A DNA stretch of 60,450 nucleotides from a virus (lineage: Duplodnaviria > Caudoviricetes), in the IMG/VR virus record IMGVR_UViG_3300032254_000005, positions 1 through 60,450 of that record. One strand, given 5' to 3'. This document shows positions 14,377-51,984 of this stretch, piece by piece. The translations under genes were made by a program, and so were the position numbers. The notes beneath the pieces are model-generated. The model searched no databases. It worked only from the letters and a program-made list of their open reading frames with translations, and was not told the origin of the DNA. Position 1 is the first letter of the stretch; each line of letters begins with the position of its first letter.

Positions 14377-16305
14377 ATGGGTCTTATTCAGCAGCGCGAA
14401 ACGTGGTCAGCCACGCGCAAGAAAATCAACCAGACCAACCGCATCACATATGCAGAGTTTATTGCAAACACTGATTTCACATATACCGCCGGTAGTGTTG
14501 GTTCAGTCACGGCTGGGGATATATTCAGGCTTGCGGATGGGTCATCTTGGGAAGTTGCCGCATCTGGCGCAAGCGATCAGCATCTGACGGTCAACGGCGT
14601 CAAATGGTATGAGGCGGGCCTAAATTTCAGCACACGCGCCCGCATGGTTGCGGCCAAGGCACGGATGGACGCAGCGGGCGAGACCGTAGCAGATGGAGTA
14701 ATATGGACGGCTACGGGCTTCCGATATAGAGCATCCGCTGGGGCAACGACGATCAGCGACATGGCTGGCTGGCTGGCGGTGGCACCGGTCTATCTTGAAC
14801 ACTACGGCGTTGTAACATCGGCCTCTGCGGCTGGGGCGTCTACGGATTACTCCACTGAATTGCAAGCCGCGTTGGATGCCACGTCCGGCGATCTGCATTG
14901 CACGGGATGGGCATATACTTCGAGTGGTCTTTCGTGGCCAGATTATTGCGGCTTTAAGATCGTAGGGGATATAGAGTCGGGTGGCATCGTTACTGACAGC
15001 GCAATCGGCACAGCAACCAACCTCGTGGATTTCGGAACCGGTCTTGGTCCGTCGATTGATAGTCTGCACCTGTGGTTCAGGCAAGCAGCCGGTATCACCC
15101 TGCGGGCGCAATTGTATGACCATCTACCTCTGGTATCCTTCGATGACGCATCGCGCGGCAACATTCGCCACCTGCGCATAAGCCAGGCATCAAAAGGTAT
15201 CACGGCTCAAGATGGCGTTGGTGGCTCAAATCCCGGCGGCTGGAAAGTCCAAGTTGCAGAAATCGGAGCGTTTGAATCGCCGTTTGTGACGGATGGCGGG
15301 CTGGACTTCATCAAGATCGACAATGTTCACATCTGGCCATTTGGGATTTCATCTGACGCTGATCTTATGGCGATTTGGTCTGACGGTGCAGCGACTGGCA
15401 GCCAGATTATTTCCGCCGATGGCTTAATGATCGACACGTTTTCAACATTCAAAACGCCTGTTGAAGTTGGCGAAGCAGCAAGCGCAACTATCTTGCCGTT
15501 TATTCTTGGACTGCAACTTGACGGTGACGCATCACGGCTGATCTTCAAGGGTGGGCGAAGTGTTATCAGCGCACTTTATTCCACAAAGAATACCCCATCA
15601 GCCACGACAATCGTTGTGGAGGGAGGGACGCACCATCTGAATATGCCGCACCTTATCGGCGGTGAGGACAACATGATTGAAGTTCAGAGCGGGGCAGAAC
15701 TCAACGTAAATGGCGGGTACTTGCGCCAGCATCTGAGTGCCAATAAGCGCGGGGGCGTGGTCAAGTCTGGCGGCAAGCTGCGCTTCAAGGGGGCGCATTT
15801 CGATTTCCCGACCGGCGCTGGCACCGTGCCATTTGTCGAACAGGAATCGGGCGGCATTCTGGTTGTCGATGGCTGCTCTGTTATCCTTGGAAACGCCACG
15901 CCTCGGTCTGAGGTTGTTAAATTCAACAGCGATGTGGTCGGCAACTATGTGGATATTGACCAGCTTAAGCCGCATGGGGTGACTTATCCAGCCAACAGCT
16001 TGCAAGGCATATATCGGCGTCAAGGTGGCGTTCTTGGCGCAACCCCCGCGATCACCGGAAATGTAGACGGCATAGAAACCGGAACGATCCATTACACAGG
16101 CGACATCTCGGAAGCGACCGCTGTTTCGTGGAATTTGCCAGCTTTGGGTGGCACCGATACGCGCGCGTGGGTTTGCCACACATACGGCCAAGCCGCTCGG
16201 ACGGTTCAGCAGGCGACGGAGATATTGGGTGTAGGCACTACGCGAGGGCGCACGTTCATACGTGTCAGGCAGGCGTCCACTTGGTATTCGTGGGTGGAAC
16301 TGTGA
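14377..16305 (+). CDS. Tailspike / receptor-binding protein 1 (beta-helix-like)
   Basis: AAGGA RBS; beta-rich repeats; core shared with 49324..51984; C-terminal RTFIRV...W.SW motif. Confidence 0.8.
   Translation: MGLIQQRETWSATRKKINQTNRITYAEFIANTDFTYTAGSVGSVTAGDIFRLADGSSWEVAASGASDQHLTVNGVKWYEAGLNFSTRARMVAAKARMDAAGETVADGVIWTATGFRYRASAGATTISDMAGWLAVAPVYLEHYGVVTSASAAGASTDYSTELQAALDATSGDLHCTGWAYTSSGLSWPDYCGFKIVGDIESGGIVTDSAIGTATNLVDFGTGLGPSIDSLHLWFRQAAGITLRAQLYDHLPLVSFDDASRGNIRHLRISQASKGITAQDGVGGSNPGGWKVQVAEIGAFESPFVTDGGLDFIKIDNVHIWPFGISSDADLMAIWSDGAATGSQIISADGLMIDTFSTFKTPVEVGEAASATILPFILGLQLDGDASRLIFKGGRSVISALYSTKNTPSATTIVVEGGTHHLNMPHLIGGEDNMIEVQSGAELNVNGGYLRQHLSANKRGGVVKSGGKLRFKGAHFDFPTGAGTVPFVEQESGGILVVDGCSVILGNATPRSEVVKFNSDVVGNYVDIDQLKPHGVTYPANSLQGIYRRQGGVLGATPAITGNVDGIETGTIHYTGDISEATAVSWNLPALGGTDTRAWVCHTYGQAARTVQQATEILGVGTTRGRTFIRVRQASTWYSWVEL
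14596..15950 (+). repeat. Long direct repeat, copy 1 (tailspike core)
   Basis: Matches 50035-51389 at a constant offset of 35,439; identical by eye over 14677-15128, diverging towards the 3' end. Confidence 0.97.
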
Positions 16306-16327
16306 TGCCCGTCCATACCCAAGGAAA

Positions 16328-16377
16328 AGCGGGGGCGTCGTGATACCTCTTCGCAAAACCGCCGAAATGTTCATGGC
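16328..16377 (+). repeat. 50-bp direct repeat, copy 1
   Basis: agcgggggcgtcgtgatacctcttcgcaaaaccgccgaaatgttcatggc; 47/50 identical to 52021-52070. Confidence 0.95.
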
Positions 16378-16411
16378 CCTTTTTTTGGGGTGGAAAGGCA
16401 TAAAGCAATGA
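16340..16411 (+). pseudogene. 5' remnant of the membrane-protein gene at 52033
   Basis: VIPLRKTAEMFMAL vs MIPLRKTAEIIMAL; its stop overlaps the amidase ATG (ATGA). Confidence 0.7.
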
Positions 16412-17253
16412 AGCTTGCAATTGTAATAGGGCACAATAGCGCCAGTCAGGGCGCGGTGCGACAGGACACCGGCGAAAGTGAATTCGTTTGGAATGGGCGG
16501 CTAGCACGGCGCATAGAGCGCCTGGCGGGCGACTATGGCATCCAGGTGCGCACGTTCTTCCGCACGCCGGGCGGCGGATACTCGACCGAGATCAGGCGCG
16601 TCTATGCCGAGGTGGACGCCTGGGGCGCGGATGCGAGTGTTGAGCTGCACTTTAACGGTGCAAGCTCGGCCGAAGCGACCGGCACCGAAACCCTATCGAG
16701 CGGCACCGCGTTGTCCCTTCGCCTGGCCGAAAGCGTGCAACGCGAGATGGTGCTGGCGTTGGGCCTTCGGGATCGCGGGATCAAGACGCGCTCCAGCTCG
16801 GATAGAGGCGGCATGTCGCTGATCTCCGGCCGGGCTCCGGCGATCCTGGTCGAGCCCTTCTTCGGCAGCTCGCCGGTGGGCAACCGGGCAACCGACGAGG
16901 AGACGGAACAGGAGCGCCTGGCGGATGCGATCCTGCGCGGCACGGCCGAGGCGTTCCAGAGCTTTCCGCGCTCGACCCTGACCGGAAGCCGGACGATCCG
17001 CGCGGCCGAGACGCAGCGCACAGCCCAGGCGGTGCAGGGCCAGGCGGGCATTGCCGCCGGTGTCGCCGCTGCCGCGACCCAGGCGCGCGAACAGATCGAG
17101 GCGATCCCGGCCGTGGGTGGCCTGGCCGACTGGCTTCCCTGGGTGGCGCTGGGCCTGATCGGGGTAGTGCTGGCCGCGACCGTGGTGCAGCGCGTCATGT
17201 CCGACCGGATCGAGGAGGCTCGGGTTGACGATCACGAACGGGGCATCCGGTGA
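16408..17253 (+). CDS. Endolysin, N-acetylmuramoyl-L-alanine amidase (Amidase_3) with C-terminal TM helix
   Basis: IVIGH, E, SVELHFN, ILVEPFF zinc motifs; hydrophobic WLPWVALGLIGVVLAA. Confidence 0.9.
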   Translation: MKLAIVIGHNSASQGAVRQDTGESEFVWNGRLARRIERLAGDYGIQVRTFFRTPGGGYSTEIRRVYAEVDAWGADASVELHFNGASSAEATGTETLSSGTALSLRLAESVQREMVLALGLRDRGIKTRSSSDRGGMSLISGRAPAILVEPFFGSSPVGNRATDEETEQERLADAILRGTAEAFQSFPRSTLTGSRTIRAAETQRTAQAVQGQAGIAAGVAAAATQAREQIEAIPAVGGLADWLPWVALGLIGVVLAATVVQRVMSDRIEEARVDDHERGIR

Positions 17254-17468
17254 TCTGGGGCTGGATGCGCAAGCTCTGGCCGTTGATCTTGGGGGCTATG
17301 GGCATCGCTGCCCTGATGCTGACCGGGCGGCGCAATGGGCGACTTGAAGAACGAGTGGATCGCGCCCAAGCGCGCGACGAGGTAAAGGAAAGGATGCGGG
17401 ATGCGGTGGCAAACACTAGGACTGACCGGGATGGTGTTGTTGAGCGGTTGCGTGGCGGCCGTTTCTAA
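17250..17468 (+). CDS. Putative i-spanin (Rz-like)
   Basis: N-terminal TM then charged helix; overlaps a lipoprotein gene. Confidence 0.6.
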   Translation: MIWGWMRKLWPLILGAMGIAALMLTGRRNGRLEERVDRAQARDEVKERMRDAVANTRTDRDGVVERLRGGRF

Positions 17469-17619
17469 CGTCTGTCCGACGATCTTCGACTACTCGCAAG
17501 AGGTGCAGGACCAAGTGGCCAACGAGCTGCAAGCCCTGCCGGAAGGGTCGGCGCTGTCTGTAATGATTGGACACTACGGCGTCGTGCGGAACGAAATACG
17601 AGCGTGCCGGGGACAGTAA
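17401..17619 (+). CDS. Putative o-spanin lipoprotein (Rz1-like)
   Basis: Lipobox LLSGC; overlaps the i-spanin; start uncertain. Confidence 0.65.
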
Positions 17620-17942
17620 TGGGTGACGACTTGAAGTGGATAATCGGGCTGGGTGTTTCCCTTACCCTTGGGTGGGGATCAATACTAGCCGGGGCGTTCT
17701 GGAAATTGGTGTCGATGGTCCGCCGGGTGGAGGATGAAATGGACCGCAACTCGAAAGAGCTTCACGCGCGGATCAACAGGGTGCGTGAGGACACGGTGCA
17801 GAAGTCGGACCTTGACGGGCACCTTACGCGGCTATCCAGTGACATGCGCGATATGCGGCAAGAACAACGAGAGGCAACCAAAGACACGAACACGCGGCTC
17901 GATGCGCTTCTCTCCGCGATAGCCACTCGGCCCGGTCACTGA
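17619..17942 (+). CDS. Membrane protein (holin-like) with coiled coil
   Basis: Single N-terminal TM; in lysis cassette; TAATG overlap. Confidence 0.55.
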
Positions 17943-18196
17943 CCCAGCCGCTTCTTGCGCTCCCGATCTTCGGCCAAGATCATATCCACGCGAGTGGCGA
18001 CCTCTCCGATCATGCCCTCTCCAGGTGTTCCCTTTGCCCCCCGATGTTTGCGCCATATCTTAAGCAACTGCATCACGCTCTTGCCTTGGCGGGCCAGCAG
18101 GTTGTTGTAGGTTACGCGGCACTCCTTGCCGCAGTAGGTGCGTCCCTTGGCCGTGGCGCGGCCGCAGAAGTCGCAGGAGCCGCGTATAAGCGGCAT
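17936..18196 (-). CDS. Small zinc-finger protein
   Basis: CDFC...YCGKEC; GGAG upstream. Confidence 0.65.
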
Positions 18197-18288
18197 AGTT
18201 GCTTTTTTGCTCCATTGGTGTCCGAGACATGGCGACCCCTCTCAGCGGTTAATACAGCGGGCGCAAGTCACTTGCGCCCGCCCTGGTG

Positions 18289-18576
18289 TTACTCGTCCAG
18301 CCAATCGAGATGGACTTCCTTCGCCTTTGACGGCTCCGGCGGTTCATAGACGGCTCGCTGGGGGCCGAAAACGGCCACCTTCGCCTTGGAGCGCACCGCC
18401 TTCTGGCTCGCGCGGGCCTTGGCGTTGGCCTCGGCGTCCGGCCCCTGGAACACCTCGATGTTGTTCCGCGTCTCCGTCTGGTGAAACACGATGAACACAG
18501 CTTGCGTCACGTCGATTGCAGCAAAGGCGTTGTCGTCGTCATTCTCGGGCTTCTTGGTGGTCTTGTCGTCAGCCAT
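18289..18576 (-). CDS. Hypothetical protein
   Basis: AAGGAG RBS; in leftward operon; followed by hairpin gggcgcaag-tca-cttgcgccc. Confidence 0.65.
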   Translation of the reverse strand: MADDKTTKKPENDDDNAFAAIDVTQAVFIVFHQTETRNNIEVFQGPDAEANAKARASQKAVRSKAKVAVFGPQRAVYEPPEPSKAKEVHLDWLDE

Positions 18577-19024
18577 TGGGTTCTCCTTTGTGGCCTGGAT
18601 GGTCAATCATGGACGGCCCACCGATCTGGCGGATCGCCTTTCGTTCGCGCTTCAAAAGCTTGGCGATAGTCTCCTTTCTCAAGGCTCGCCCGGTCGCGGC
18701 GCGGTGCGCGATCCATTCGCTCGGCGTCATGTGCGCCTTGTCGTTGTTGCACGCCTGGCACATGAGCATGAGGTTGCACGCATGGTGTGTGCCGTTGCGG
18801 CTTTGCGGGATCAGGTGATCCACCGTGGCGATGGATTGCTCGATCACGACCTCGCTCGGCTCGCGGAAGCCGCCCCAGGCTTGTTGCCAGCGGCCGACAA
18901 AGCGGCTCTGGCTTTCGAGGCCACGGAACCATACGGGCCGACCGCAGCACCTGCACCATAGCTCATCGTTCTCGACGTAGCAGCACATCATCCTGCGCCG
19001 CTTGCCGCTTATCTTTGACCACAT
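18569..19024 (-). CDS. HNH endonuclease
   Basis: C..CG, ATVDHLIP.S.NG, NL.L.C..CN..K. Confidence 0.88.
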   Translation of the reverse strand: MWSKISGKRRRMMCCYVENDELWCRCCGRPVWFRGLESQSRFVGRWQQAWGGFREPSEVVIEQSIATVDHLIPQSRNGTHHACNLMLMCQACNNDKAHMTPSEWIAHRAATGRALRKETIAKLLKRERKAIRQIGGPSMIDHPGHKGEPNG

Positions 19025-19914
19025 CAGCCCAGCTCACCACGGTTCTCGTCTGCCCGCTTGGCTGTCTCCCACAGCTCGCGCTTGATCGGCTGGAGCGCTG
19101 CCCTCTCCTCCTCGGTGGCGACCTTCTGGAAAAACGTTGTGATCTGTTCGATACCGTCGTGGGCGATCCGCCGGGCGCGATCCCACATCTCCTTGTCGGG
19201 CGTCGTGATGGTGCCGCCGCGCGCCCAGGCTGCGAGCTTCGATCCCGCCTCGGCCGTGATGTGACGGCCGGGAAGGAAGCTCATGCGGTGCTGGTCCTGG
19301 ACCTTGTGCGGCAACGTGAGATCGACCACGCCGGGCGAGCTTGGATTGAGCGTGAAGCTGGCTGTCATTTCATACATGAACCGCTTTTCCTGGATCGGGA
19401 ACCAGCCCGCGTTTTCCACGATCAACCGGCCGCGATCATCCTTCTTGCTCATGTCGATCTTCTCCTCGGCCCGCAGGCAGAAGATCAGATGCGCGCGCAC
19501 CTGGAGAAAGGCGTTCATCATCTTCTTGTGGCGCATCTTGGGGTCTTTCCATGCGCCTGGGCCTTTGACGCTGGACGCCTCGGCCATGTCCATGATCCCG
19601 CCCTGGCCGTCAAATTCGTGGCTCATGCTGTCGATCACAATCGCCTCGAACCCGGCCTTCTCTGCCGCCCTCACCGCCTCCAGGTAGCGCTCCGGCGTGA
19701 AGGGCGGCGCGAAGTCGGCGTGCTTGAAGGTGAATTGATCGGCATAGTGCAGGGCGCGGCCTGCCTCGGTGTCGATCACGGCGAACGGCTTGTCGCCGCA
19801 AATGCCTGTCGCCAGGTTCATGGCGCTGAACGTCTTGCCGCTGCCGGAGGCCCCCGCAAGGGCCACCAGCAGGTGCGTGTTGCGGCGCTCGGCCGTGTTG
19901 AAGGTGAAGCTCAT
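19024..19914 (-). CDS. AAA ATPase, Sak4-like recombination protein
   Basis: GASGSGKT, IDTE, VIDSMSHE, F.YEMT; adjacent to an exonuclease. Confidence 0.85.
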   Translation of the reverse strand: MSFTFNTAERRNTHLLVALAGASGSGKTFSAMNLATGICGDKPFAVIDTEAGRALHYADQFTFKHADFAPPFTPERYLEAVRAAEKAGFEAIVIDSMSHEFDGQGGIMDMAEASSVKGPGAWKDPKMRHKKMMNAFLQVRAHLIFCLRAEEKIDMSKKDDRGRLIVENAGWFPIQEKRFMYEMTASFTLNPSSPGVVDLTLPHKVQDQHRMSFLPGRHITAEAGSKLAAWARGGTITTPDKEMWDRARRIAHDGIEQITTFFQKVATEEERAALQPIKRELWETAKRADENRGELG

Positions 19915-20900
19915 TCGATCACGTCCTTCTCGTCACGGCTCTGGCCCTGGACGGCGGCGGGTTGCCAGCCTTCGGGTGCCTGCCAGGTGCGCATCATCTC
20001 CAGCAGATCGGTGCCTGCCGACTTGGCCGCTTCCTCGGCGTCCTTCTCCGCGATCAGATTGCGTTCGTGCCATTCGGGGCACTCCAGCTTGATCGTCTTG
20101 GAGATCATGCCGGGCCAGGTATTCTCGCGCAGGCACCGGCCCCAGATCATCAGCGCGCGCTCGCGGCGCATCAGCGCTGTCTCCAGGAACGTGCTGTCAA
20201 TCTCGGCCGTCAGCAGAAGGTGCGGCTCGGCCGTCTCCTGCACCACGAAATACTGGCGCGGCGCGGTGCCGGTCAGGAGCTTCGCGCCCTGGTGATAATG
20301 CGCGGCCGTCATGTCCCAGCCGGAATTGGCGGCAAACTTGGCGAGCGTCACCGGCGCGATATCAGTGCCGGTGGTCTTGTAGTGGATCACCACGTTCTCC
20401 TCGGGCGAGTAGAAGTCGGGGCGGCTCCGGCACATGACGCCGCTTTCCTGCCATAGCATCGTGGCTTCGCGTAGGAGCTTCACCTGGTTGTCGCGCGAGA
20501 ACAGGTGCCCGATCTCGGGATTGTCACACACCTGGTCGAGCGCCACCTTCGCCATTGCCCGCACGCGCGGCATGTTCTTCGCCAGGATCGGCGTCTTGCC
20601 ATAGGCATAGGCTTCGATCCTGGCTTCCTTCGCTTCCTTCGACCGGAAGTCGGCCGCGTCGATCTCGACAATGGGCGCTCCGGTGCCGGTGAATAGCCGG
20701 TGCGCGGCCGAGCCCAAGTCGAAGATCGTTTTCTCCTCGCTTTCGGCGTCCTTGTTGAGCCGGGGCGTGTTCTCCCAAACCTTGCGCGGCGCGGTGCCGA
20801 GGAGGTCTTTCACAAGCGAGCTGGTCAGGCTCGGCTCCGGCATCGGATCGGCCAGGTAGGTGGCAAAATCCATGCCCTCAATCAGTTGGGGTAGCTGCAT
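19911..20900 (-). CDS. PD-(D/E)XK exonuclease (RecE/Exo VIII-like)
   Basis: Y.AD, L.SS, GSAAH, CRSRPD, YKTT, FVVQE..EP. Confidence 0.82.
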   Translation of the reverse strand: MQLPQLIEGMDFATYLADPMPEPSLTSSLVKDLLGTAPRKVWENTPRLNKDAESEEKTIFDLGSAAHRLFTGTGAPIVEIDAADFRSKEAKEARIEAYAYGKTPILAKNMPRVRAMAKVALDQVCDNPEIGHLFSRDNQVKLLREATMLWQESGVMCRSRPDFYSPEENVVIHYKTTGTDIAPVTLAKFAANSGWDMTAAHYHQGAKLLTGTAPRQYFVVQETAEPHLLLTAEIDSTFLETALMRRERALMIWGRCLRENTWPGMISKTIKLECPEWHERNLIAEKDAEEAAKSAGTDLLEMMRTWQAPEGWQPAAVQGQSRDEKDVIE

Positions 20901-21099
20901 CTTCGATCTCCTTTTTGATCTTGCGCTTTGCTTCCATCAGCGCGTCCACGTCGCCCTCCAGCAGCATGTCCACCAGTGGACCGCCGCGCCGGGCCTTCCA
21001 TGCGCCCCGCGCCTTACGGCACTCGGGACAGCAAAACTCTTGCCGGGGGTCGGCGGGCTCGAAGGCCCGGCCGCACTCATGCCATGCGCAGCGTTTCAT
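20878..21099 (-). CDS. Small zinc-finger protein
   Basis: C...ECG..F, FCCPEC. Confidence 0.65.
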   Translation of the reverse strand: MKRCAWHECGRAFEPADPRQEFCCPECRKARGAWKARRGGPLVDMLLEGDVDALMEAKRKIKKEIEDAATPTD

Positions 21100-21320
21100 G
21101 CTGTCGCCCTCGTTTGTTCCCGCACGTCGTAGCGCAGAGCCACGATAGGCTTGCCGCCCAGGTGCGGGTGCTGGCTGGCAATAGCCTTCATGGCGGAGGT
21201 AGACAGGGAGAACAGTGGGGCCGCGCCCTCGATCAAAATGGTAGCCGGGGTGATGCCGCCTCCATCCTGGACGAAAGCCAGAAGCTCCACGGATTGAATA
21301 ATCTTGCCGACTTTATCCAT
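21096..21320 (-). CDS. Hypothetical protein
   Basis: Overlapping starts and stops in the leftward operon. Confidence 0.5.
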   Translation of the reverse strand: MDKVGKIIQSVELLAFVQDGGGITPATILIEGAAPLFSLSTSAMKAIASQHPHLGGKPIVALRYDVREQTRATA

Positions 21321-21507
21321 AATAAGTCTCCGTCACGCTCTTGAAGCCGTCGTATTCCTCGCCAGTTTCGCGGCTCACCAAGCGGCAGGGGAACACTCCC
21401 ATGCCATAGGTTTCAGAATAGTTCAGATCCGAGTTGATATCTTCGCGTTGCACCTTTCGGGCCTCGGCCTCGGTGCGGTGGTAGGTTTCAGTTACCCGGT
21501 GCCCCAT
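21313..21507 (-). CDS. Hypothetical protein
   Basis: GAGG RBS, coupled overlap. Confidence 0.5.
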   Translation of the reverse strand: MGHRVTETYHRTEAEARKVQREDINSDLNYSETYGMGVFPCRLVSRETGEEYDGFKSVTETYYG

Positions 21508-21713: not shown

Positions 21714-21732
21714 AATCTCTCCTTTCGTGGTT

Positions 21733-23718: not shown

Positions 23719-23722
23719 TCCC

Positions 23723-40312: not shown

Positions 40313-40321
40313 GAGGCAGGC

Positions 40322-40879: not shown

Positions 40880-40882
40880 ACC

Positions 40883-43486: not shown

Positions 43487-46400
43487 TGGCAAGACTGGTT
43501 CAGCTCCAGCCGATTGATCCGCGCGCTACGGCAGGTGAGCGCGCTACCTTTGGCGATGCGGTGTCGAGCGGCTTTACCAGCTCCTTCACGATGGGCTCCA
43601 TTGCCGAGAACCGGCGAAACGCCGAGGTCTATGGCGGCTGGCGTCAAGTGTTTGATCGCACAGTGCAAGGCTATATTGAGCTACCGCCCGATCTCGGCCG
43701 TGCTGTAGCCGAGCAAGGCTTCGCCCCTGACGAGGAGACACTCGGACAGCTCATGGAATGGGCGCAAGAGGCATCGACGCAATACGACTTCGAGATCACG
43801 CCGGACATGGACCCTGCGGCCGTCATGCAGCGGCGCGAGGAGATTTACGCGCGGGATGCGGAGATCGTGGAGCGCGAGCAAGAGGTCTTGAGCCGGGCCA
43901 GCCCGTTTTCGCGCAATGTCGGTGGGCTGATCGGCGGCGTCGGTGCTGAGTTCCTGGACCCGATCAACATCGCCACGCTTCCGGCCGGCGCGACCGCCCG
44001 CGTCGGGCTTCTCGGCACGGTGCTGATCGAGGCAGGGATCAACGCTGCAATCGAGGCGGTAGATACGCCGAACCGCAACGCCATTGCCGAGAGGCTGGGT
44101 CAGGAGGGTAATTCCGTCCTGGAGAACGCCGCTCTCGGCGCGCTGTTCGGCGGTGCTTTCGCCGGTGTCATCAAGGGCGCTGGACTAGGCGTGCGACAAC
44201 TCGGCAGGATCGGCCGCCTCATTCCAGACAGACGCGCGCTGATCGACGTGGCCGAGGCGACGGGCGATCCAGAGGCACAGCTCATTGCACAGCAGCTCAG
44301 GCGCGATCTGGAGGACGAGGAGGCGGCAACAAGCGGCAATGATGGGTCAGAGGCGCGGGAACACCTTGACCGCGCCCAGGAGGCCGCACAGACGGCGCAC
44401 GAGGGTGGCGTGCCAGACATGCCAGATCGACCGACCTTTGCCCAGCCGCGTGGTTCCATCATCAATGGCGAGATTGAGGAGGTAAACCCGCGCGATCTCT
44501 TGGTGCATCCGGACGTGTTTCAGTTCCGCTCGAACGTCGTGGCCGAGGGCGGGCAAACCCAGCGACTTCTAGATGTGACAGAATGGTATCCAGAACGTGC
44601 CGGGATTGTGGTCGTTTACGAATACACGGACGGATCGCGGGCTATCGCGGACGGGCACCAGCGCACCGGCCTTGCGACCCGCATCATGGATCAAACGGGG
44701 CAAGAGATCACAATGGCCGCACGGGTGTTCCGCGAGGCCGATGGATTTTCGCCGGAGGATATCCGCGTGCTGGCGGCGCTCAAGAACATCGCTGAGGCCA
44801 GCGACGGCATGTCAACGGCGATGGCACGAGACGCGGCTCGTGTGCTGCGCGTGCGGCCGGATGCGATCACGCAACTGCCAGCCGGCCCAGGTATCGCGCG
44901 AGCGCAATCACTGGCACGGCTGTCTGACGAGGCGTTCGATATGTTCATCAATCAGGTGGTGCCAGAGCGTTTCGCGGAGCTTGTGGGCAGGATGGTGGAT
45001 AACCCTGACATGCACGCGGCGATGGTTCAGCTTCTCAAGCGCGCCGGGCCCGACACCACGGCCCAAGCTGAAAGCATTTTGTCACAAGCCCTACAAGCGC
45101 CCGTGTCGCGCGAGGTCACAGCCGATCTGTTCGGTGAACAAGAGATTGTGGAAAGTCTATATCTGGAGCGCGCAAAGGTGCTGGAGCGCGCTATGCGGAT
45201 CATGCGCGATGATCGCAGCGTGTTCCGCACCTTGGACGAGCGCGCGGATCGCATCCAGGGAACCGGCGGGAACCGCCTGGACACGGCCACGAACAAGCAG
45301 ACCAGGCAGCAAGTGGAACAAGCCCTGGCAGCGGTGCAGAAGCTGGCGCACCGGGCCGGGCCGATATCGGAGGCGTTGAACGATGGCGCGAAAGTCTACA
45401 AGGAAAACGGTCGTCTCAAAGACGCGGCACAGCGGGTTGCAGATGCTGTCCGACAAGAGGTTGAGCGAAATGGCCTCTCTGGGGCAAGAGCTGGCGATGT
45501 TGGACGTGATGCAGAACCTGCGCGTGCGAGCGCAGCGGCACCTGATCCCGCCCTCGAAGGCTTCTCGGACCCGGTAAACGGGGCAGGCATCCGCGCACAG
45601 ATCGCAAACACCAGGATTGAACCAGCGGCCGAGCCTAAGATCGAGCGCCTGCCCGACCTGGACCCTGCCGAGGCGGCGCAGCTCGAAGCCGGATTGAAAG
45701 CCGCCCAGGCGATCCGCGACGTGGACGATCTCATGGAGCGCGGCGCGCGCAACCATGTGGAGCTGACGCGCGAGATCGAGGTAGCGGCGCGGGATGCTGG
45801 CGTGACGGCCAGGGCGATACCGCTCAAGGGGCGAGAGCGCACCGAGCAAAAGGTGCGGGACAAGTATGCGGGCGACGTGAACCGCGTCACCGACGTGGCG
45901 CGCGGTGGTGTCGATGCACCGACGCCGGAAGCGGCCGAGGAGTTCGTGGCGATCCTGGCGCGCCGGTATCGGGTTCTCGATGAAGGCTGGAACGTGGTCG
46001 AGGGCGGATACTTCGACCGCAAGCTGACGGTGGTTTTCGATGATGGGCAGCTCGGGGAAGTTCAGCTCTGGGTGCCCGGCATGTTCGAGGTCAAGGAAGC
46101 TCGGGGGCACAAGCTCTATGAAGTCTACCGCGACCTGTCACGGTCGGAGAATGAACGGATGCAGGCGCTGGCCGACATGGAAGCGCTCTATGCGGGCGTG
46201 ATGGACAAGCTGCCGCCGCAATGGCGCTCTATCTTGGGTCAGGAAACGCCGGGCATGGAAGCGCCCAGCCGAGCCACGACGGAGACGAACACCTCCTCGG
46301 ACACCTCGGGCGAGCCTTCATCGGCAAGAACCTCGGACGGCGATACGTCGGACCAAGTGCCGTCGGAGCCAAGCAGCAACATCGAGCCTGGCTCCGGCTC

Positions 46401-46803
46401 CAGCGCTGGGATGGAGCGGTCTACTAGAAAAAATCTCATGGGGGATACCTCCTCTTCCGATGTAAGTAACAATGGTCGGGCTGTCAACACGGAGCGCACC
46501 AGCGCTGGCGAGCAAAGCCTGTTCGACGAGATCGAGCCTATCACGGAACGCACCAGGCTTGACCAGCGGGCATCGCAGCCGCTCGGCCGGGGTGGTGGCG
46601 CGGCTGATGATACAGAGATCGGCGGGCTGTTCGACCCAAACGATCCCGGCCGGCTCGACCTGTTCGACGCGGTGCCGGTGGACCGTAGGTTCGACGATGA
46701 AGGCAACGAGATTGCCGTGGTGAAATCTCGCGCCGATCTTGCGGCCGAGCTGGATGCTGACGACGAGGCGGTGGCCGTCCTCGACCTCTGCGTGAAAGGG
46801 TAA
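43486..46803 (+). CDS. Polyvalent internal virion protein with ParB-like and RelA/SpoT synthetase-like domains
   Basis: DP.N virion N-terminus; IADGHQR near 44644; LK..ER..QK, TDVARG, GYFD.K, GEVQ, GHKLYE at 45820-46125. Confidence 0.8.
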   Translation: MARLVQLQPIDPRATAGERATFGDAVSSGFTSSFTMGSIAENRRNAEVYGGWRQVFDRTVQGYIELPPDLGRAVAEQGFAPDEETLGQLMEWAQEASTQYDFEITPDMDPAAVMQRREEIYARDAEIVEREQEVLSRASPFSRNVGGLIGGVGAEFLDPINIATLPAGATARVGLLGTVLIEAGINAAIEAVDTPNRNAIAERLGQEGNSVLENAALGALFGGAFAGVIKGAGLGVRQLGRIGRLIPDRRALIDVAEATGDPEAQLIAQQLRRDLEDEEAATSGNDGSEAREHLDRAQEAAQTAHEGGVPDMPDRPTFAQPRGSIINGEIEEVNPRDLLVHPDVFQFRSNVVAEGGQTQRLLDVTEWYPERAGIVVVYEYTDGSRAIADGHQRTGLATRIMDQTGQEITMAARVFREADGFSPEDIRVLAALKNIAEASDGMSTAMARDAARVLRVRPDAITQLPAGPGIARAQSLARLSDEAFDMFINQVVPERFAELVGRMVDNPDMHAAMVQLLKRAGPDTTAQAESILSQALQAPVSREVTADLFGEQEIVESLYLERAKVLERAMRIMRDDRSVFRTLDERADRIQGTGGNRLDTATNKQTRQQVEQALAAVQKLAHRAGPISEALNDGAKVYKENGRLKDAAQRVADAVRQEVERNGLSGARAGDVGRDAEPARASAAAPDPALEGFSDPVNGAGIRAQIANTRIEPAAEPKIERLPDLDPAEAAQLEAGLKAAQAIRDVDDLMERGARNHVELTREIEVAARDAGVTARAIPLKGRERTEQKVRDKYAGDVNRVTDVARGGVDAPTPEAAEEFVAILARRYRVLDEGWNVVEGGYFDRKLTVVFDDGQLGEVQLWVPGMFEVKEARGHKLYEVYRDLSRSENERMQALADMEALYAGVMDKLPPQWRSILGQETPGMEAPSRATTETNTSSDTSGEPSSARTSDGDTSDQVPSEPSSNIEPGSGSSAGMERSTRKNLMGDTSSSDVSNNGRAVNTERTSAGEQSLFDEIEPITERTRLDQRASQPLGRGGGAADDTEIGGLFDPNDPGRLDLFDAVPVDRRFDDEGNEIAVVKSRADLAAELDADDEAVAVLDLCVKG
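46239..46439 (-). CDS. Nested antisense 66-aa acidic protein, candidate immunity protein
   Basis: AGGAGGT 7 nt before ATG; promoter-like sequence upstream; stop lies at the end of the RelA/SpoT domain. Confidence 0.7.
   Translation of the reverse strand: MRFFLVDRSIPALEPEPGSMLLLGSDGTWSDVSPSEVLADEGSPEVSEEVFVSVVARLGASMPGVS
46447..46487 (-). promoter_or_regulatory. Internal antisense promoter and RBS
   Basis: TTGACA (46487-46482)-N17-TACATC, then AGGAGGT (46453-46447). Confidence 0.65.
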
Positions 46804-46806
46804 GAC

Positions 46807-49320
46807 ATGAGCCTTAGAGATTGCCTCAATCGGGCGGTAGCCGGTGGCGATATGGACCGCGAGCGCGCGCAGCGTATCCTTCGGGAATACGACAACGCCT
46901 TCCGCGAGTTCCAGCGCAGCATGGGCTACACCCAGGCCGATATCGAGGCCGCGCGCGCCGTCGCCAGGAAAGCTCGGGCCGAGGCTGCGGACAAGCGCCG
47001 AGTGATGCAGCTCCAGGCGGCGGCAAGCCAGCGGCTTGCAGCACGCCAGCAAAGGCACAGGAACATTCGCGGCGACCTATCGCCAGGTGTGTTTCTGTCA
47101 GACGTAGTTCACAACTCACGGGGCGCTGGGGGCGAAACATTGGTCGGTACTTATGAAGCAATCAGGCGAAGTTATCGCCGCCGCCTTACAATGATGATGC
47201 AATCCTTCAAGGCAAACCTTTGGGGTTCCCGTCGCCGCAAGGATGTTATGCACAGCATGGGGCGGGCGATGTATGGTGAAAGCGTTTCAGACCCAAGGGC
47301 AGCGGAGATGGCAAAAGCGCTTGCTGACGTGGCAGATAGCGCGCGCCTGCGGTTTAATGCGGCTGGTGGAAGGATCGGCAAACGCGAGACGTGGGGCCTT
47401 CCGCAACGGAATGACACCGAGAGGGTGAGGAAAGCGACCTATGAAGATTGGCGGGCTGTTCGGCTTTATCGGAACGGCCGAGACGCAAGAGATGGATACG
47501 CGCTTGATTTGGAGGCGATGGGGCAGGACTTCAACAATGGCCGCGCCTTCACCGAAGATACATTAGAGGTGCATCTTCACGATGCCTATTTGGCAATTCG
47601 ATCAGATGGATATTCCCGCCGTGAGGCGTCCGCATCTCCCGGAGGGAGGGCAATTTACAACCGGCGCACAGAACGCCGGTTCTTCCAGCCAAAAACCTAT
47701 GACGACTGGCGGGCGTATAATGATCGGTTTGGAACGGGTCAGGACGTGTTCCGCACTATGCTTGCCCACCTTGACGACATGGCAATGGACACGGCTTTGA
47801 TGGAGGTGTTTGGGCCGAATTACTTGGCCCAATTCCGACTTCTAGGAGATAGCGCGCGGATGCTGGCCGCGCGCAGCCAAGACCCTAGTGCGCTCACAAA
47901 GGCGAAGGCAGACGTTAATTCGGCCAATGTTGTTTTGGATACCGCGCTCGGGCACCACAATGCAGCCGTTGGAACGTGGCAATCGAAAATGGCGCGGGGC
48001 GCAGCAGCTTTGCGAAACTACCTGACGAGCGCGCACCTTGGCGCTGCTATTTGGTCATCTGTAACAGACTTCAATTATCAGCGGGTGCAGGCGTCATTGG
48101 GCGGCTTCTCGCAGACGCAATCGGCCAAGTACCTCGCCAGATTGGTGCGAGATAAAGGGCTGCGCGAGGTCGCGCATGAGGCTGGTCTTATCTTCGAAAA
48201 TGCGGTGGACGTGGGCAATGCTGTTGCGCGCTATGAGATGGACGATCTCCATGTTGAGGTCGCGGCACGCATGGCGGACGCTACTCTGCGTGCATCTGGC
48301 CTGGCCCCCATCACAGAAATGCAAAAGCAGGCACATGGCCTTGTAATTATGAATGGCGTTGCAAAAGATCAGCGTGTTCCCTGGTCCGATCTCAGCGAGG
48401 TGTCGCGGCGCTTTTGGCGCGGCTACGGTATTACCGAGCAACGCTGGCCTTCGATACTTCGAGCCGAGCCGTTTACTGACGAGAAGGGTTTGACGATTGT
48501 TCGCCCGCAAGACATCGAGATCGCGGGCGACCAAGAGACGGCAGATTTATATATGGCCGCAATCGTCAATTCTACAATTCACGCAGTTCCACAGCAGGAC
48601 GTTAGGTCGCGCTCGATTGTTGAGGGGGCACTTCCGTCAGATACGATTTATGGCCAAACAATCAGGTTCATGCTTCAATTCAAAAGCTTTCCGATTAAGG
48701 TAATGATCGACATTGTTTCTCAGGTGGCGCGCGAGGCGAACGCTGGCCGTCCAGGAAGCGCTTTTTCGTTTGCAGCCAACCTTCTGATCGTCAATTCAAT
48801 TCTCGGCGGCATCGCTGTCCAGCTCAAGACAATGGATGATGGACGCGATCCGATTGACATGACCACTCCTAAATTCTGGGCGGCCGCGATTGCCCAGGGC
48901 GGCGGCGCTGGCATCTTCGGAGACTTCTTTTTTTCCGACGTAAACCGCTTTGGCGGGGGCGTGGCTGAAACGCTGGCCGGTCCTGGCGTTGGCTTTCTGG
49001 ACGACACGCTGCGCTTCTCGGTAGGCAACGCGCGCGAGCTGGTGCTGGGCGAGGACACGCGGGCCGGGCGCGAGTTCGTGCAGCTCCTGCGGAATTATAC
49101 GCCAGGCGGCTCGCTTTGGTATCTGCGGCTGGCCTACGAGCGCGAGGTTCTGGATCAGCTCCAGCAGGTTCTCGACCCAGATGCAGCGCAGTCGTTCCGT
49201 CGCCGCGTTCAGGGCGCGCGTGAGTATGACACTCAGTTCTTCGCACCGCCTGGTTCATCTGTTATACAGGGGCGAGGCTCGCTGCGGTCGCCAGATATTG
49301 CAAACGCTTTCGGAGGGTAA
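46807..49320 (+). CDS. Large internal virion protein (BPP-1/epsilon15 type)
   Basis: RFN.AGG.IG..E.WGLPQ, QFKSFP, GG.GI.GDF, PG..LWY.R. Confidence 0.8.
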   Translation: MSLRDCLNRAVAGGDMDRERAQRILREYDNAFREFQRSMGYTQADIEAARAVARKARAEAADKRRVMQLQAAASQRLAARQQRHRNIRGDLSPGVFLSDVVHNSRGAGGETLVGTYEAIRRSYRRRLTMMMQSFKANLWGSRRRKDVMHSMGRAMYGESVSDPRAAEMAKALADVADSARLRFNAAGGRIGKRETWGLPQRNDTERVRKATYEDWRAVRLYRNGRDARDGYALDLEAMGQDFNNGRAFTEDTLEVHLHDAYLAIRSDGYSRREASASPGGRAIYNRRTERRFFQPKTYDDWRAYNDRFGTGQDVFRTMLAHLDDMAMDTALMEVFGPNYLAQFRLLGDSARMLAARSQDPSALTKAKADVNSANVVLDTALGHHNAAVGTWQSKMARGAAALRNYLTSAHLGAAIWSSVTDFNYQRVQASLGGFSQTQSAKYLARLVRDKGLREVAHEAGLIFENAVDVGNAVARYEMDDLHVEVAARMADATLRASGLAPITEMQKQAHGLVIMNGVAKDQRVPWSDLSEVSRRFWRGYGITEQRWPSILRAEPFTDEKGLTIVRPQDIEIAGDQETADLYMAAIVNSTIHAVPQQDVRSRSIVEGALPSDTIYGQTIRFMLQFKSFPIKVMIDIVSQVAREANAGRPGSAFSFAANLLIVNSILGGIAVQLKTMDDGRDPIDMTTPKFWAAAIAQGGGAGIFGDFFFSDVNRFGGGVAETLAGPGVGFLDDTLRFSVGNARELVLGEDTRAGREFVQLLRNYTPGGSLWYLRLAYEREVLDQLQQVLDPDAAQSFRRRVQGAREYDTQFFAPPGSSVIQGRGSLRSPDIANAFGG

Positions 49321-49323
49321 AAG

Positions 49324-51984
49324 ATGGCGGTTTCGGAAAACGATCTTCTTGTGGGGCCAGTCATTCCAGCAGTAGGCGTGGCGACGATCTCGCTCGATTT
49401 CTACTTCGAGAACGAGGACTGGCTGGAGGTTTACAAGACCGGCTCAGAAACGCCGCTTGTTCTTGATACTGATTACACCGTGGCGGGCGAGGGCACTGCC
49501 TCCGGCGTGGTGACGCTGACGACGCCAGCCAACGGCGTTGACGCCTATTATGTCCTTCTTATGGTTCCTGCCGAAAGGTCATCTGATTTCGCCCTGCGCG
49601 GCGACTTCAAGAGCGGCCCGGTAAACGCCGAATTAGATAGGGTCTGGCAACGGCTGCAACGGCACTGGACGGAGTTCAACAGCGCCCTGCGGCTTTCCCC
49701 GGCAGACCGGACAGCTTCGCCGATTTACATGGATACACCAGAGGTAGGGCGTGTTCTGGTTGGCACTGCGGGCGGCGTTGAAAACGGGCCTACGGCTGAT
49801 GAAGTCGCGGCCGCTGAGGGATATTCTGTAGCTGCCGCAACATCTGCCGCGCAGGCCGCGCTGTTTGATGGCCCGCGTTTTGACAACATCACCGATTTCG
49901 GTTCGGACACATTCCTGACCTATACCGCCGGTCAAGACGGAACGGTCGCAGCCGGAACGATCATTCGGGCGTCCGGGCAGTTCGTGGAGATCGCATCGGT
50001 TGGTGCGTCTGACCAACACGGCACCACGGCGGGCGGCGTCAAGTGGTATGAAGCCGGGCCGAATTTCAGCACACGCGCCCGCATGGTTGCGGCCAAGGCG
50101 CGGATGGACGCAGCTGGCGAGACCGTAGCAGATGGAGTAATATGGACGGCTACGGGCTTCCGATATAGAGCATCCGCTGGGGCAACGACGATCAGCGACA
50201 TGGCTGGCTGGCTGGCGGTGGCACCGGTCTATCTTGAACACTACGGCGTTGTAACATCGGCCTCTGCGGCTGGGGCGTCTACGGATTACTCCACTGAATT
50301 GCAAGCCGCGTTGGATGCCACGTCCGGCGATCTGCATTGCACGGGATGGGCATATACTTCGAGTGGTCTTTCGTGGCCAGATTATTGCGGCTTTAAGATC
50401 GTAGGGGATATAGAGTCGGGTGGCATCGTTACTGACAGCGCAATCGGCACAGCAACCAACCTCGTGGATTTCGGAACCGGTCTTGGTCCGTCGATTGATA
50501 GTCTGCACCTGTGGTTCAGGCAAGCAGCCGGTATCACCCTGCGGGCGCAATTGTATGACCATCTACCGCTGGTATCCTTCGATGACGCATCGCGCGGCAA
50601 CATTCGCCACCTGCGCATAAGCCAGGCATCAAAAGGTATCACGGCTCAAGATGGCGTTGGTGGCTCAAATCCCGGCGGCTGGAAAATCCAAGTTGCAGAA
50701 ATAGGAGCGTTTGAATCGCCGTTTGTGACGGATGGCGGGCTGGACTTCATCAAGATCGACAATGTTCACGTCTGGCCGTTTGGGATTTCATCTGACGCTG
50801 ATCTTATGGGGATTTGGTCTGACGGCGCAGCGACTGGCAGCCAGATTATTTCCGCCGATGGCTTGATGATCGACACATTTGCTTCGTTTCAAATGCCATT
50901 GGAAGTTGGCGAAGCAGCAAGCGCTACTATCTTGCCGTTTATTCTTGGACTGCAACTTGACGGTGACGCATCACGGCTGATCTTCAAGGGTGGGCGAAGT
51001 GTTATCAGCGCACTTTATTCCACAAAGACCACCCCATCAGCCACGACAATCGTTGTGGAGGGAGGGACGCACCATCTGAATATGCCGCACCTTATCGGTG
51101 GTGAAGACAACATGACCGAAGTTCAGAGCGGGGCAGAACTCAACGTAAATGGCGGGTACTTGCGCCAGCATCTGAGTGCCAATAAGCGCGGGGGCGTGGT
51201 TAAGTCTGGCGGCGTCTTGCGTTTCAAGGGAACGCATTTCGATTTCCCTACCGGCGCGGGCACCGTGCCATTTATCGAACAGGAATCCGGCGGCATTCTG
51301 GTGGTTGATGGCTGCACGGCACCGCCATCGAATGCAACGGCGCGCTCCGAGGTTGTTAAATACAACAGCGACGTGCAGGGCAATTATCTGGATGGCGAGA
51401 GCCTGTATCCGCACGGCTGCACGTTCACGGCAAACTGGACAACCGGATACTATCGCGCCGGGCGGGTGGTTGCGCCACTCGAGCGCATTGCAACGCTCAC
51501 GCCTTCCTCTACCGTTAGCACCGAACAAACCTGGGGCAGTGGATATTCGCGGGTAAGGCTGGATTTGAACGAGGTGGCCCCGGCGACAGACGGCGCAGCA
51601 CTTCGCTTCCGCTTGCGACAGGGCGGCACATACAATACATCTGGTTATTCGTGGTCAGTTTTCGGGGTAAGCTCCGGCGCGATTAGCGTTTCTGACAGCA
51701 CGGGCGATGTTTCGGGCCTGTTGCACCCGCTGGCCATCACCATCGGCAATGTCGCAACGAATGAGCGCGGCGTGTCGGGCTGGATTGAAATCATCAATCC
51801 AGGCGATAGCGGATTTACCAACTACTTTGGACAAGTCAGGTATTATGACGCATCCGACGCGCCCAAGAGCTTTTCGATCAGCGGGACACTGAAAGTTGCC
51901 GGGGCCGTTGATGGCGCGCAATTATTTTTCGGTGTTGGCAATATCGCCTCCGGCGAAATCATCATTGCAGGCTATAGGGAGTAA
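49324..51984 (+). CDS. Tail fibre/tailspike 2 with T7 gp17-like N-terminal anchor
   Basis: F.F....L.VY, DYTV.G, N.ELD anchor; shares core with 14377..16305; different C-terminal domain. Confidence 0.85.
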   Translation: MAVSENDLLVGPVIPAVGVATISLDFYFENEDWLEVYKTGSETPLVLDTDYTVAGEGTASGVVTLTTPANGVDAYYVLLMVPAERSSDFALRGDFKSGPVNAELDRVWQRLQRHWTEFNSALRLSPADRTASPIYMDTPEVGRVLVGTAGGVENGPTADEVAAAEGYSVAAATSAAQAALFDGPRFDNITDFGSDTFLTYTAGQDGTVAAGTIIRASGQFVEIASVGASDQHGTTAGGVKWYEAGPNFSTRARMVAAKARMDAAGETVADGVIWTATGFRYRASAGATTISDMAGWLAVAPVYLEHYGVVTSASAAGASTDYSTELQAALDATSGDLHCTGWAYTSSGLSWPDYCGFKIVGDIESGGIVTDSAIGTATNLVDFGTGLGPSIDSLHLWFRQAAGITLRAQLYDHLPLVSFDDASRGNIRHLRISQASKGITAQDGVGGSNPGGWKIQVAEIGAFESPFVTDGGLDFIKIDNVHVWPFGISSDADLMGIWSDGAATGSQIISADGLMIDTFASFQMPLEVGEAASATILPFILGLQLDGDASRLIFKGGRSVISALYSTKTTPSATTIVVEGGTHHLNMPHLIGGEDNMTEVQSGAELNVNGGYLRQHLSANKRGGVVKSGGVLRFKGTHFDFPTGAGTVPFIEQESGGILVVDGCTAPPSNATARSEVVKYNSDVQGNYLDGESLYPHGCTFTANWTTGYYRAGRVVAPLERIATLTPSSTVSTEQTWGSGYSRVRLDLNEVAPATDGAALRFRLRQGGTYNTSGYSWSVFGVSSGAISVSDSTGDVSGLLHPLAITIGNVATNERGVSGWIEIINPGDSGFTNYFGQVRYYDASDAPKSFSISGTLKVAGAVDGAQLFFGVGNIASGEIIIAGYRE
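50035..51389 (+). repeat. Long direct repeat, copy 2
   Basis: Matches 14596-15950. Confidence 0.97.

Follow-up and report, generated by a model that had tools for sequence, protein, structure and literature searches.

The virus record analysed here (60,450 bp; hereafter the window, i.e. the whole stretch at its full length) is most likely an assembly chimera in which two independent podophages of one microbial-mat community are merged. Each of the two would be ~36 kb long, and the assembly program would have joined them at a common tail-spike segment. The record is a complete metagenome-assembled virus entry, with a completeness of 100% (CheckV); end repeats are absent and both ends fall within genes of the same phage (phage A). 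It is made up of 25 kb of P22-like podophage A, split by the full 35,439 bp of podophage B. Phage A has a P22-like head and its circular map measures ~36 kb, and phage B (~35.4 kb) has a T7-like tail tube and internal virion proteins. An initial annotation read this arrangement as one phage nested whole inside another. The anatomy of that reading is right, but the cointegrate as a real molecule finds no support beyond the contig, and the phage-in-phage nesting is probably not a molecule.

Phage A occupies the two outer flanks of the window:

1-14594, + strand: left part of phage A (PHROGs; 95-98% nucleotide identity to the A-type records L004 and L005)
2-1315, + strand: TerL, 5' end cut (PHROGs)
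1210-3282, + strand: portal (phrog_156, E 2.5e-147)
3295-4143, + strand: scaffold (PHROGs)
4156-5388, + strand: major head protein (phrog_283)
5817-7310, + strand: Hc3 (PHROGs)
7719-8720, + strand: ejection protein (PHROGs)
9336-13228, + strand: large virion proteins (PHROGs)
13292-14359, + strand: tail-fibre-like gene (PHROGs)
14377-14594, + strand: A-specific spike anchor
51394-60450, + strand: right part of phage A (PHROGs; 94-96% identity to A-type records just past their spikes)
52033-52431, + strand: A-type gene, 132 aa, membrane-protein-like
52741-53568, + strand: endolysin (PHROGs), with small lysis-region ORFs also in the right part
56338-57369, - strand: BstA-like gene (PHROGs)
59885-60448, - strand: DNA methyltransferase, truncated by the contig end (PHROGs)

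Phage B lies between them:

15955-50033, + strand: phage B outside the repeat (PHROGs; collinear with the B-type record G001, 90-97% over its blocks)
16408-17253, + strand: B endolysin, N-acetylmuramoyl-L-alanine amidase (PF01520, E 3.4e-21; phrog_435)
within 15955-50033: HNH gene (PHROGs)
19024-19914, - strand: Sak4-like gene (PHROGs)
19911-20900, - strand: ExoVIII-like gene (PHROGs)
23723-24586, + strand: DnaD-like gene (PHROGs)
24583-25071, + strand: TerS-like gene (PHROGs)
25701-26468, + strand: PAPS-reductase-like gene (PHROGs)
26560-28197, + strand: TerL (PHROGs)
31741-33363, + strand: portal (PHROGs)
35275-36255, + strand: major head protein (PHROGs)
36639-40312, + strand: tail tube A/B (PHROGs)
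40322-46803, + strand: internal virion proteins (PHROGs)
46807-49320, + strand: phrog_684 protein (PHROGs)
49324-50033, + strand: B spike anchor

The two TerL, portals, capsids and lysis cassettes listed by the initial annotation are all recovered with PHROGs.

Each parent is also found alone, at 90-98% identity: the relatives G002, L005 and G003 contain just an A-type phage, and G001 just a B-type phage. The A-type record L004/G002 (35,872 bp, with terminal repeats) runs from window 4782-13732 through a spike body of its own into window 52033-55335, and L005 runs from window 3612-10029 and 13255-14710, again through its own spike body, into window 52033-53579 (both 95-98% identity). The A-type G003 connects window position 60450 to position 1 via 10.7 kb. 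The B-type G001 (36,278 bp, with ends that overlap by 1.3 kb at 92%) runs from window 30969-49549 through its own spike body into 16408-32293, thereby closing from the spike to the B endolysin. Likeness to the B-type relative L007 restarts exactly at the ATG of the B endolysin (L007 position 13278, window position 16408). The 35,439-bp unit is a complete circular replicon, as judged by its collinearity with G001 and the overlapping ends of that record. As the initial annotation had it, excision between the repeats yields B as a complete genome, which is collinear with a separate record of 36.3 kb. It also restores an A-type phage in which the spike leads into that phage's own lysis genes, the arrangement seen in three independent A-type records. 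The spike bodies of these stand-alone relatives (G001-G003 and L005) differ in part from those of the window.

Composition falls into two classes, and the two outer flanks match each other. The inner segment was said to be richer in GC, and its content is 61.8% versus 57.5% (A-left) and 55.2% (A-right) for the outer flanks. Tetranucleotide correlations are 0.83-0.85 among A chunks and 0.83-0.90 among B chunks, versus 0.49-0.75 between A and B chunks.

The two phages meet in the spike genes, where the following features are present:

14377-16305, + strand: spike ORF copy 1 (642 aa), consisting of A anchor, common module and C-terminal part type 1
14595-15954, + strand: direct repeat copy 1, common receptor-binding module
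14677-15128 (copy 1) and 50116-50567 (copy 2), + strand: identical stretch of 452 nt (the core), likeliest A-to-B switch site
15955-16305, + strand: C-terminal part type 1, assigned to phage B
16308-16380, + strand: short repeat D4 copy 1, upstream region and first ~11-13 codons of the A-type gene
16340-16411, + strand: 23-codon stub before the B endolysin, in which these first codons of the A-type gene are retained
49324-51984, + strand: spike ORF copy 2 (886 aa), consisting of B anchor, common module and C-terminal part type 2
50034-51393, + strand: direct repeat copy 2, offset 35,439 from copy 1
51394-51984, + strand: C-terminal part type 2, assigned to phage A
52001-52073, + strand: D4 copy 2, covering the start of the full A-type gene (52033-52431)

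The direct repeat spans 1360 nt at 95% identity (1286 nt ungapped at 96.1%; the 300-nt seed family at 97%), and its offset of 35,439 agrees with the initial annotation. The identical stretch, earlier put at '~450 bp', measures 452 nt as an exact match, is the longest identity between the copies and cannot be due to chance. The proteins of the two spike ORFs have 464 of 522 residues in common. The two copies are reciprocal hybrids, i.e. to the left of the core copy 1 carries A-side letters and to the right it carries minority (B) letters. D4 is present at both joins, with an exact match of 28 nt (16342-16368 and 52035-52061).

Read depth in public runs bears directly on the join. Depth here is contig word depth, a single mean per contig that is not a copy number, and the seven strong runs are known as k=31 contigs, which are unable to bridge the 452-nt core. 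Run X1 matches the window best (0.96 of sampled words); runs X8-X19 contain only 0.05-0.06 of the words and no inference is drawn from them. A depth step at the repeats had been named as evidence against the nested reading, and such a step is present in X1: A-left has 154.6 (7203-nt contig, 0 differences) and B-right 63.8 (8175-nt contig, 0 differences). Further contigs agree, with 157.4 for A-left and 70.8 for B-right, so that per-contig means of 154.6 and 157.4 before the join fall to 60.3 and 63.8 after it. The 60.3 belongs to C-terminal part 1 (contig 15732-16370, 0 differences), and a contig of run X5 (15783-16413) continues from this part into the B endolysin. By contrast, an X1 contig with a depth of 103.9 departs from copy 1 at 15876, rejoins at D4 and is then identical to window 52071 onward; it is the path through C-terminal part 2 into the A lysis genes.

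The letters of the repeat follow the same division. The X1 contig 14623-15425 (depth 147.7) has exactly seven differences from the window, all to the right of the core, and the contig 15487-15761 has six; all 13 of these letters are of copy-2 type. At 14661 and 14676 the first of the two contigs retains copy-1 letters. Since copy-1 letters stand to the left and copy-2 letters to the right, the commoner population reads A-left and then copy-2-right, i.e. the majority letters in X1 follow an A-to-A path through the core; a majority-letter contig may stem from bubble removal and tells the dominant letters, not linkage. Phages A and B co-occur in runs X1, X4 and X5, at A-to-B depth ratios of ~2.4, ~1.4 and ~1.1, respectively, the X4 and X5 contigs being those of variant strains. 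In run X6, A pieces have a depth of ~3x and B is mostly without cover, which is no evidence for A without B. The depths and the letter switch fit two populations that run together in the core of the assembly graph.

An assembly graph could yield the record in a simple way. The 452-nt core would be one common edge with two entries (A-left and B-left) and two exits (A-right and B-right), and the B circle would loop on it. Assemblers with SPAdes-type path extension go round such a loop once. A path that comes in from A, makes one turn round the B loop and goes out into A would give exactly this contig. The true A genome would then consist of the A anchor, the module with copy-2-type letters, C-terminal part 2 and the A lysis genes, and the true B genome of the B anchor, the module with copy-1-type letters, C-terminal part 1, the stub and the B endolysin. 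Because the contig is drawn from a branching assembly graph, it is no evidence of linkage. The initial annotation had itself allowed that ~450 bp of identity might mislead a short-read assembler, and this is the reading now favoured. Short reads increase chimericity, according to the accessible text of one study (PMC4247695). In simulations, as given in the accessible part of another (PMC5610896), chimeras make up <5% of contigs of at least 10 kb, so a given contig has no high prior of being one.

The alternative that survives best is a true Campbell-type cointegrate, which we regard as unlikely. One crossover in the 452-nt core, possibly aided by the Sak4-like and ExoVIII-like proteins of B, would have put circular B into A during co-infection, and some intracellular DNA with the nested structure would have been sampled. 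The structure is as one crossover yields, with two hybrid direct repeats around a complete circle, and a real single crossover would also fall in the 452-nt core and yield an identical sequence. Moreover, B encodes recombination proteins, both phages occur together in X1, X4 and X5, and the phages evidently recombine in nature, given their common cassette with its conserved arms and the passage of other small pieces between the lineages. The depths are also compatible with a mixture of free A and cointegrates that hold all of B. Against this, depth as a proxy gives unequal inner and outer amounts in X1 (154.6 vs 63.8 across the join), so that no more than about two fifths of A could be joined to B, a share that would require every B to be linked; for the join itself, the contig is the one witness. 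At 60.4 kb the molecule would be ~170% of either genome, and neither capsid should package it. A 60-kb cointegrate would thus exceed the packaging of either ~36-kb phage and should not spread as a virion. Nor is a prophage state evident: the initial annotation saw no integrase, and neither PF00589 (tyrosine) nor PF00239 (serine recombinase) has a match anywhere in the window; the tyrosine integrase PF00589 has none in G001-G003 either, including the A-type relative with terminal repeats. The proposal that an integrase-less phage rides inside another thus lacks an integrated carrier, since A-type phages are also without a tyrosine integrase. That the contig is a single-crossover cointegrate of co-infecting integrase-less podophages, formed in the 452-nt core and caught as an intracellular intermediate of the cassette exchange to which the conserved arms point, is in our view distinctly improbable. 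If it were, resolution elsewhere in the 1.36-kb repeat would shuffle spike ends between unrelated lineages.

Much less probable is a chimera or recombinant joined at D4 rather than in the core, in which all of copy 1 would belong to the spike of A and all of copy 2 to that of B. D4 stands at both joins, and G003 contains an A anchor, a type-1 C-terminal part (~80% alike) and A lysis genes. However, in X1, C-terminal part 1 has the depth of B (60.3), the path through C-terminal part 2 is deeper (103.9) and continues into A lysis, and all 13 dominant letters to the right of the core are those of copy 2. It is also far less likely that an assembler would be misled, or a crossover hosted, by a match of 28 nt than by one of 452 nt. 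Because of the depths and the letter phase, we reject a crossover at D4. A single genuine 60-kb phage whose structural, packaging and lysis genes are each present in two complete sets has a negligible probability: it is favoured by the contig itself and its CheckV completeness of 100% only, and is contradicted by halves that differ in GC, tetranucleotide usage and depth, by stand-alone ~36-kb relatives of each half, and by contig ends that lie inside A genes and are bridged in a relative through 10.7 kb more of A.

Under the assembly-chimera reading, what remains as biology is that two unrelated phage lineages have a receptor-binding cassette with conserved arms in common, which is a known kind of event. 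Phages A and B have unrelated portals and capsid proteins, yet the module is 89% identical in protein over 522 residues. The A anchor region (14377-14710) is 94% identical in G002 with another spike body behind it, and the B anchor region (49324-49549) is kept in G001, also with another spike body behind. The first ~115 nt of the repeat form a linker that is conserved in every A-type and every B-type relative, and a downstream arm of ~40 nt at the start of the next A-type gene is conserved in both lineages. Judged by these sequences, the spike body is an exchangeable cassette between the ~115-nt linker and the ~40-nt arm. In the A-type record L003/G003, a ~80% alike version of C-terminal part type 1 follows an A anchor and precedes A lysis genes. 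The stub in B-type phages and the A-like GC content of the module suggest an A-type donor and a B-type recipient. Other small pieces, too, have passed from one lineage to the other. The common module suggests that both phages use the same host surface receptor.

The label 'tailspike' is based on gene position, the lineage-specific N-terminal anchors and a lead from the ESM-Atlas. There, spike copy 1 matches a 'tail fiber/spike' cluster (score 0.95, 172 features in common; a lead only) with Tail_spike_N on 43% of its members and pectate-lyase-like neighbours. Pfam returns no family for either spike, a PDB sequence search with the spikes gives no match below E 0.09 (chance-level hits only, E about 0.1), and a single-sequence AlphaFold model of the spike is unusable (mean pLDDT 33.8). 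IMG/VR scans with both spikes return three and four loci, none with the window's exact spike in full. Among JGI metagenome contigs, the common module as query finds one relative among 27 pattern matches, equal in length to G003, and no alternative join with the window's exact spike is found there.

The main worth of the case is data hygiene, i.e. a '100%-complete' virus probably consists of a whole phage and 25 kb of another. Used as a reference, the 60-kb record would distort statistics on genome size, completeness, clustering and host range. One A-type relative with terminal repeats scored only 59% complete, which we conjecture is the result that a 60-kb reference would produce. Furthermore, a cassette at 96% nucleotide identity in two unrelated mat podophages clearly illustrates, in nature, a known process.

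Compared with known phages, phage A resembles the P22-like podophages in that (i) portal, scaffold, major head, Hc3 and ejection genes stand in P22-like order and (ii) the spike is the last gene before lysis. It differs from them in its genome of ~36 kb, in which no integrase was found, and in a portal only ~40% identical to that of the nearest named phages (podophages of Vibrio and Shewanella, 33-37 kb); by megablast, its left part has no match among named phages. The portal of phage B is 65.6% identical to that of the 'Dunaliella viridis virus SI2' record and 24-31% identical to those of ~34-35-kb Pelagibacter and Methylophilales podophages, which are of similar genome size. Phage B shares the T7-like tail tube and internal virion proteins with SI2 and these marine podophages, and differs in its Sak4-like and ExoVIII-like recombination genes. 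By megablast against named phages, its sole nucleotide match is a 1.3-kb portal segment at 73.7%, so that for neither phage does a named relative decide the architecture.

The record resembles Campbell-type cointegrates in that reciprocal-hybrid direct repeats flank a complete circular genome, but the depth step argues against one-molecule linkage for most molecules. Like the metagenome chimeras described in the accessible text of two reports (PMC5610896, PMC4247695), it joins two genomes of unequal abundance at a near-identical region. It differs from these in that the whole of one parent is present as a loop traversed once, so that it looks like a nested element, and in that the record passes as 100% complete.

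The spikes themselves resemble other modular receptor-binding proteins (RBPs) in that a lineage-specific N-terminal anchor carries a common distal module. P22, Det7 and 9NA are a further example of such exchange. In Alteromonas phages, tail fibres are common to members of different families, as far as the accessible text states (PMC10579305), and the RBP modules of Klebsiella phages offer a further comparison (PMC8262889). Here, unlike in those systems, short conserved arms mark both cassette ends in both lineages, and the downstream arm consists of the first part of an A-type gene, left as a stub in B-type phages.

The 60,450-bp sequence is a complete metagenome virus record, classed as linear (without end repeats), for which CheckV gives a completeness of 100%. 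As a contig it was assembled and not sequenced from an isolate; wherever the graph branches, the assembler decided how the parts are ordered. The sequence observations of the initial annotation, i.e. a direct repeat and two sets of phage genes, hold. The reading built on them, in which an inner podophage (B) is nested in an outer P22-like podophage (A), is most likely an assembly artefact, given stand-alone relatives, a step in depth and the phase of discriminating letters. The contig is probably a chimera of two phages.

The repeat copies are offset by 35,439 bp and sit within two intact spike ORFs. Positions 14595–15880 (copy 1) and 50034–51319 (copy 2) share 96.1% identity over 1286 nt without gaps, with weaker identity on to 15954 and 51393, and their longest identical run, the core, is 452 nt (14677–15128). 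The encoded spikes have 464 of 522 aligned residues in common, while their N- and C-termini are unrelated.

14377–16305: spike ORF 1, 642 aa
49324–51984: spike ORF 2, 886 aa
16308–16380 and 52001–52073: D4, a short repeat (84%) after each spike stop codon, at slightly different offsets

PHROGs annotation separates the two gene sets. The outer segments contain, up to spike 1, a 5'-cut TerL, a P22-type portal, scaffold, major head protein, Hc3, ejection protein and the spike, and 3' of spike 2 genes for a membrane protein, an endolysin, a BstA-like protein and a methyltransferase that the contig end truncates. Within the inner segment are amidase endolysin (PF01520), HNH, Sak4-like, ExoVIII-like, DnaD-like and TerS-like genes, together with TerL, a T7-type portal, major head protein, tail tube A/B, internal virion proteins and spike 2. 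It is indeed more GC-rich, as had been noticed (61.8% versus 57.5% and 55.2% in the flanks), and tetranucleotide profiles cluster the two flanks together and the inner segment apart. The inner phage was also described as having no visible integrase, which holds: no tyrosine or serine recombinase domain occurs in any frame of the window, and a search for tyrosine integrase found none in the A-type and B-type relatives (G001–G003).

Several further features were observed. The BstA-like abortive-infection gene (56338–57369, minus strand; phrog_6287, E 8.4e-101) belongs to a phage type without tyrosine integrase, both in the window and in a relative with terminal repeats. Downstream of the B amidase, ORFs 17250–17468, 17401–17619 and 17604–17942 resemble a putative spanin/holin set when their translations are read by eye, and the N-terminus of the second (...LLSGCVAA) is lipobox-like. 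A hexamer array (AGCCGG × 37.7) at 28250–28482, directly after the B TerL, lies inside a minus-strand ORF (28248–28646) with a predicted Gly/Ser/Asp/Tyr low-complexity tail at its end; this region is not conserved in the B-type G001. Among named phages, the B portal (31741–33363) is closest to that of 'Dunaliella viridis virus SI2' (37.3 kb; 65.6% aa, and 73.7% nt over 1.3 kb), which carries an alga's name yet matches a podophage portal.

Relatives were sought by scanning a viral collection with both spike proteins, which found few close ones, followed by BLAST against the window. Two A-type records, L004/G002 (35,872 bp, terminal repeats) and L005, match A-left (1–14594) at 95–98% identity, retain the spike anchor plus the opening ~115 nt of the repeat, and then have their own short spike body; identity resumes at the ATG (52033) of the gene that follows spike 2. 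A third, G003, begins within the spike, continues into 52033 onward, reaches 60450 and, after 10.7 kb absent from the window, re-enters at position 1. This join indicates that A has a circular map of ~36 kb, of which the window has 25 kb. The B-type G001 (36,278 bp, rated 100% complete) has ends with a 1.3-kb overlap at 92% and is collinear with the inner segment from 30969 to 49549, then through its own spike body to 16408 (the amidase ATG) and on to 32293. Each of these records carries one phage alone, so both genomes that excision was proposed to restore exist in nature (G002, L005 and G003 for A; G001 for B). G002, the record behind L004, is 35.9 kb long with direct terminal repeats, yet is rated 59% complete; 35.9/0.59 gives ~61 kb, about the value expected if a ~60-kb reference like the present probable chimera had been used, a candidate link. 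Its end repeat overlaps a ~60-nt tandem repeat.

Seven public microbial-mat runs, available as k=31 contigs only, contain 0.29–0.96 of the sampled words of window 10001–20000, and the contigs of four were compared with window 5001–25000. The best-matching run, X1 (word share 0.96), yields the following contigs, each depth being one mean per contig with no copy number.

A-left: 7203 nt, zero differences, word depth 154.6
A-left, second contig: word depth 157.4
B-right: 8175 nt, zero differences, word depth 63.8
B-right, second contig: word depth 70.8
15732–16370, C-terminal part 1 of the spike: word depth 60.3

Depth therefore steps between the outside and the inside of the repeats, as compared following the initial annotation, but at the resolution of per-contig means (154.6 versus 63.8). 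Another X1 contig (depth 103.9) departs from copy 1 at 15876, re-enters at D4 and then has the letters of window 52071 onward (A lysis genes).

Letter phase indicates which parts belong together. X1 contigs at 14623–15425 (depth 147.7) and 15487–15761 differ from the window at exactly seven and at six sites, and 13/13 of these carry copy-2 letters; the former has copy-1 letters at the discriminating sites 14661 and 14676. Copy-1 letters left of the core and copy-2 letters right of it mean that the commoner population runs from A-left into copy-2-right. Its order in X1 is A-left, core, copy-2-right, C-terminal part 2 (51394–51984) and A lysis, although the majority-letter contig may stem from bubble removal. 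C-terminal part 1 and the B genes belong to the rarer population. A contig of run X5 (15783–16413) spans C-terminal part 1, a stub (16340–16411) and the amidase start with zero differences. The window's change from majority to minority letters falls across the core, the sole repeat interval >117 nt without a discriminating site and one that k=31 contigs are too short in k to bridge.

Two populations of unequal abundance would merge in the 452-nt identical edge and, with one of them circular, the graph would be a loop hanging on a path; a path in from A, once round the B loop and out into A would give exactly this contig. Path extension of the SPAdes type traverses simple loops once. In the available text of one simulation study, chimeras make up <5% of contigs of at least 10 kb, and MEGAHIT produces them less often than metaSPAdes or IDBA-UD (PMC5610896); that of another has chimericity rising as reads get shorter (PMC4247695). 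A real minority cointegrate of A and B is unlikely. A true crossover would fall in the core too and yield identical sequence, and the depths leave room for linkage to B in at most about two fifths of A. At 60 kb (~170% of either genome) the cointegrate would probably be unpackageable, and it has no evident prophage state; it would exist as an intermediate inside cells. Depth and letter phase speak against a join at D4 instead of the core, which is very improbable. The X1 depth step, the stand-alone relatives and the composition split contradict a genuine 60-kb phage. As a probable chimera, the record is best handled as two genomes.

In alignments of both copies with G001, G002 and G003, each end of the spike body stays conserved across the two lineages, irrespective of the body between.

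14595–14710 and 50034–50149: first end, a ~115-nt linker opening the repeat (L004 10219–10334; B-type L007 10700–10834)
16340–16380 and 52033–52073: second end, a ~40-nt arm (L004 ~11258; L007 ~13198–13263)

The arm is the start of the A-type gene 52033–52431, from its ATG through ~11 codons (MIPLRKTAEMF...); in B-types this start persists only as a 21–23-codon stub before the amidase. GC of the shared module is A-like (55–56%). Linker and arm resemble paired homology arms through which a cassette could be exchanged. Conserved ends, stub and module GC point to a spike cassette exchanged between the A and B lineages, putatively via homologous recombination in which an A-type phage would have donated the arm. 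A piece of A-right (58669–58877, ~210 nt) is 93% identical to G001 2982–3190, between its TerL and HNH region, and, judging from the alignment, probably marks additional genetic exchange between A-type and B-type phages. The 3' part (13733–14376) of the tail-fibre-like gene 13292–14359 is a second variable cassette, replaced in G002 and skipped by an X1 variant at depth 21.4. The spike proteins have no Pfam match and no PDB sequence match, and a single-sequence model reaches pLDDT 33.8; the sole lead on their putative identity is an Atlas match (0.95) to a tail fibre/spike cluster. Cassette exchange would imply a host receptor common to both lineages, and receptor-binding modules common to unrelated phages are already well known, e.g. 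PMC10579305 and PMC8262889.
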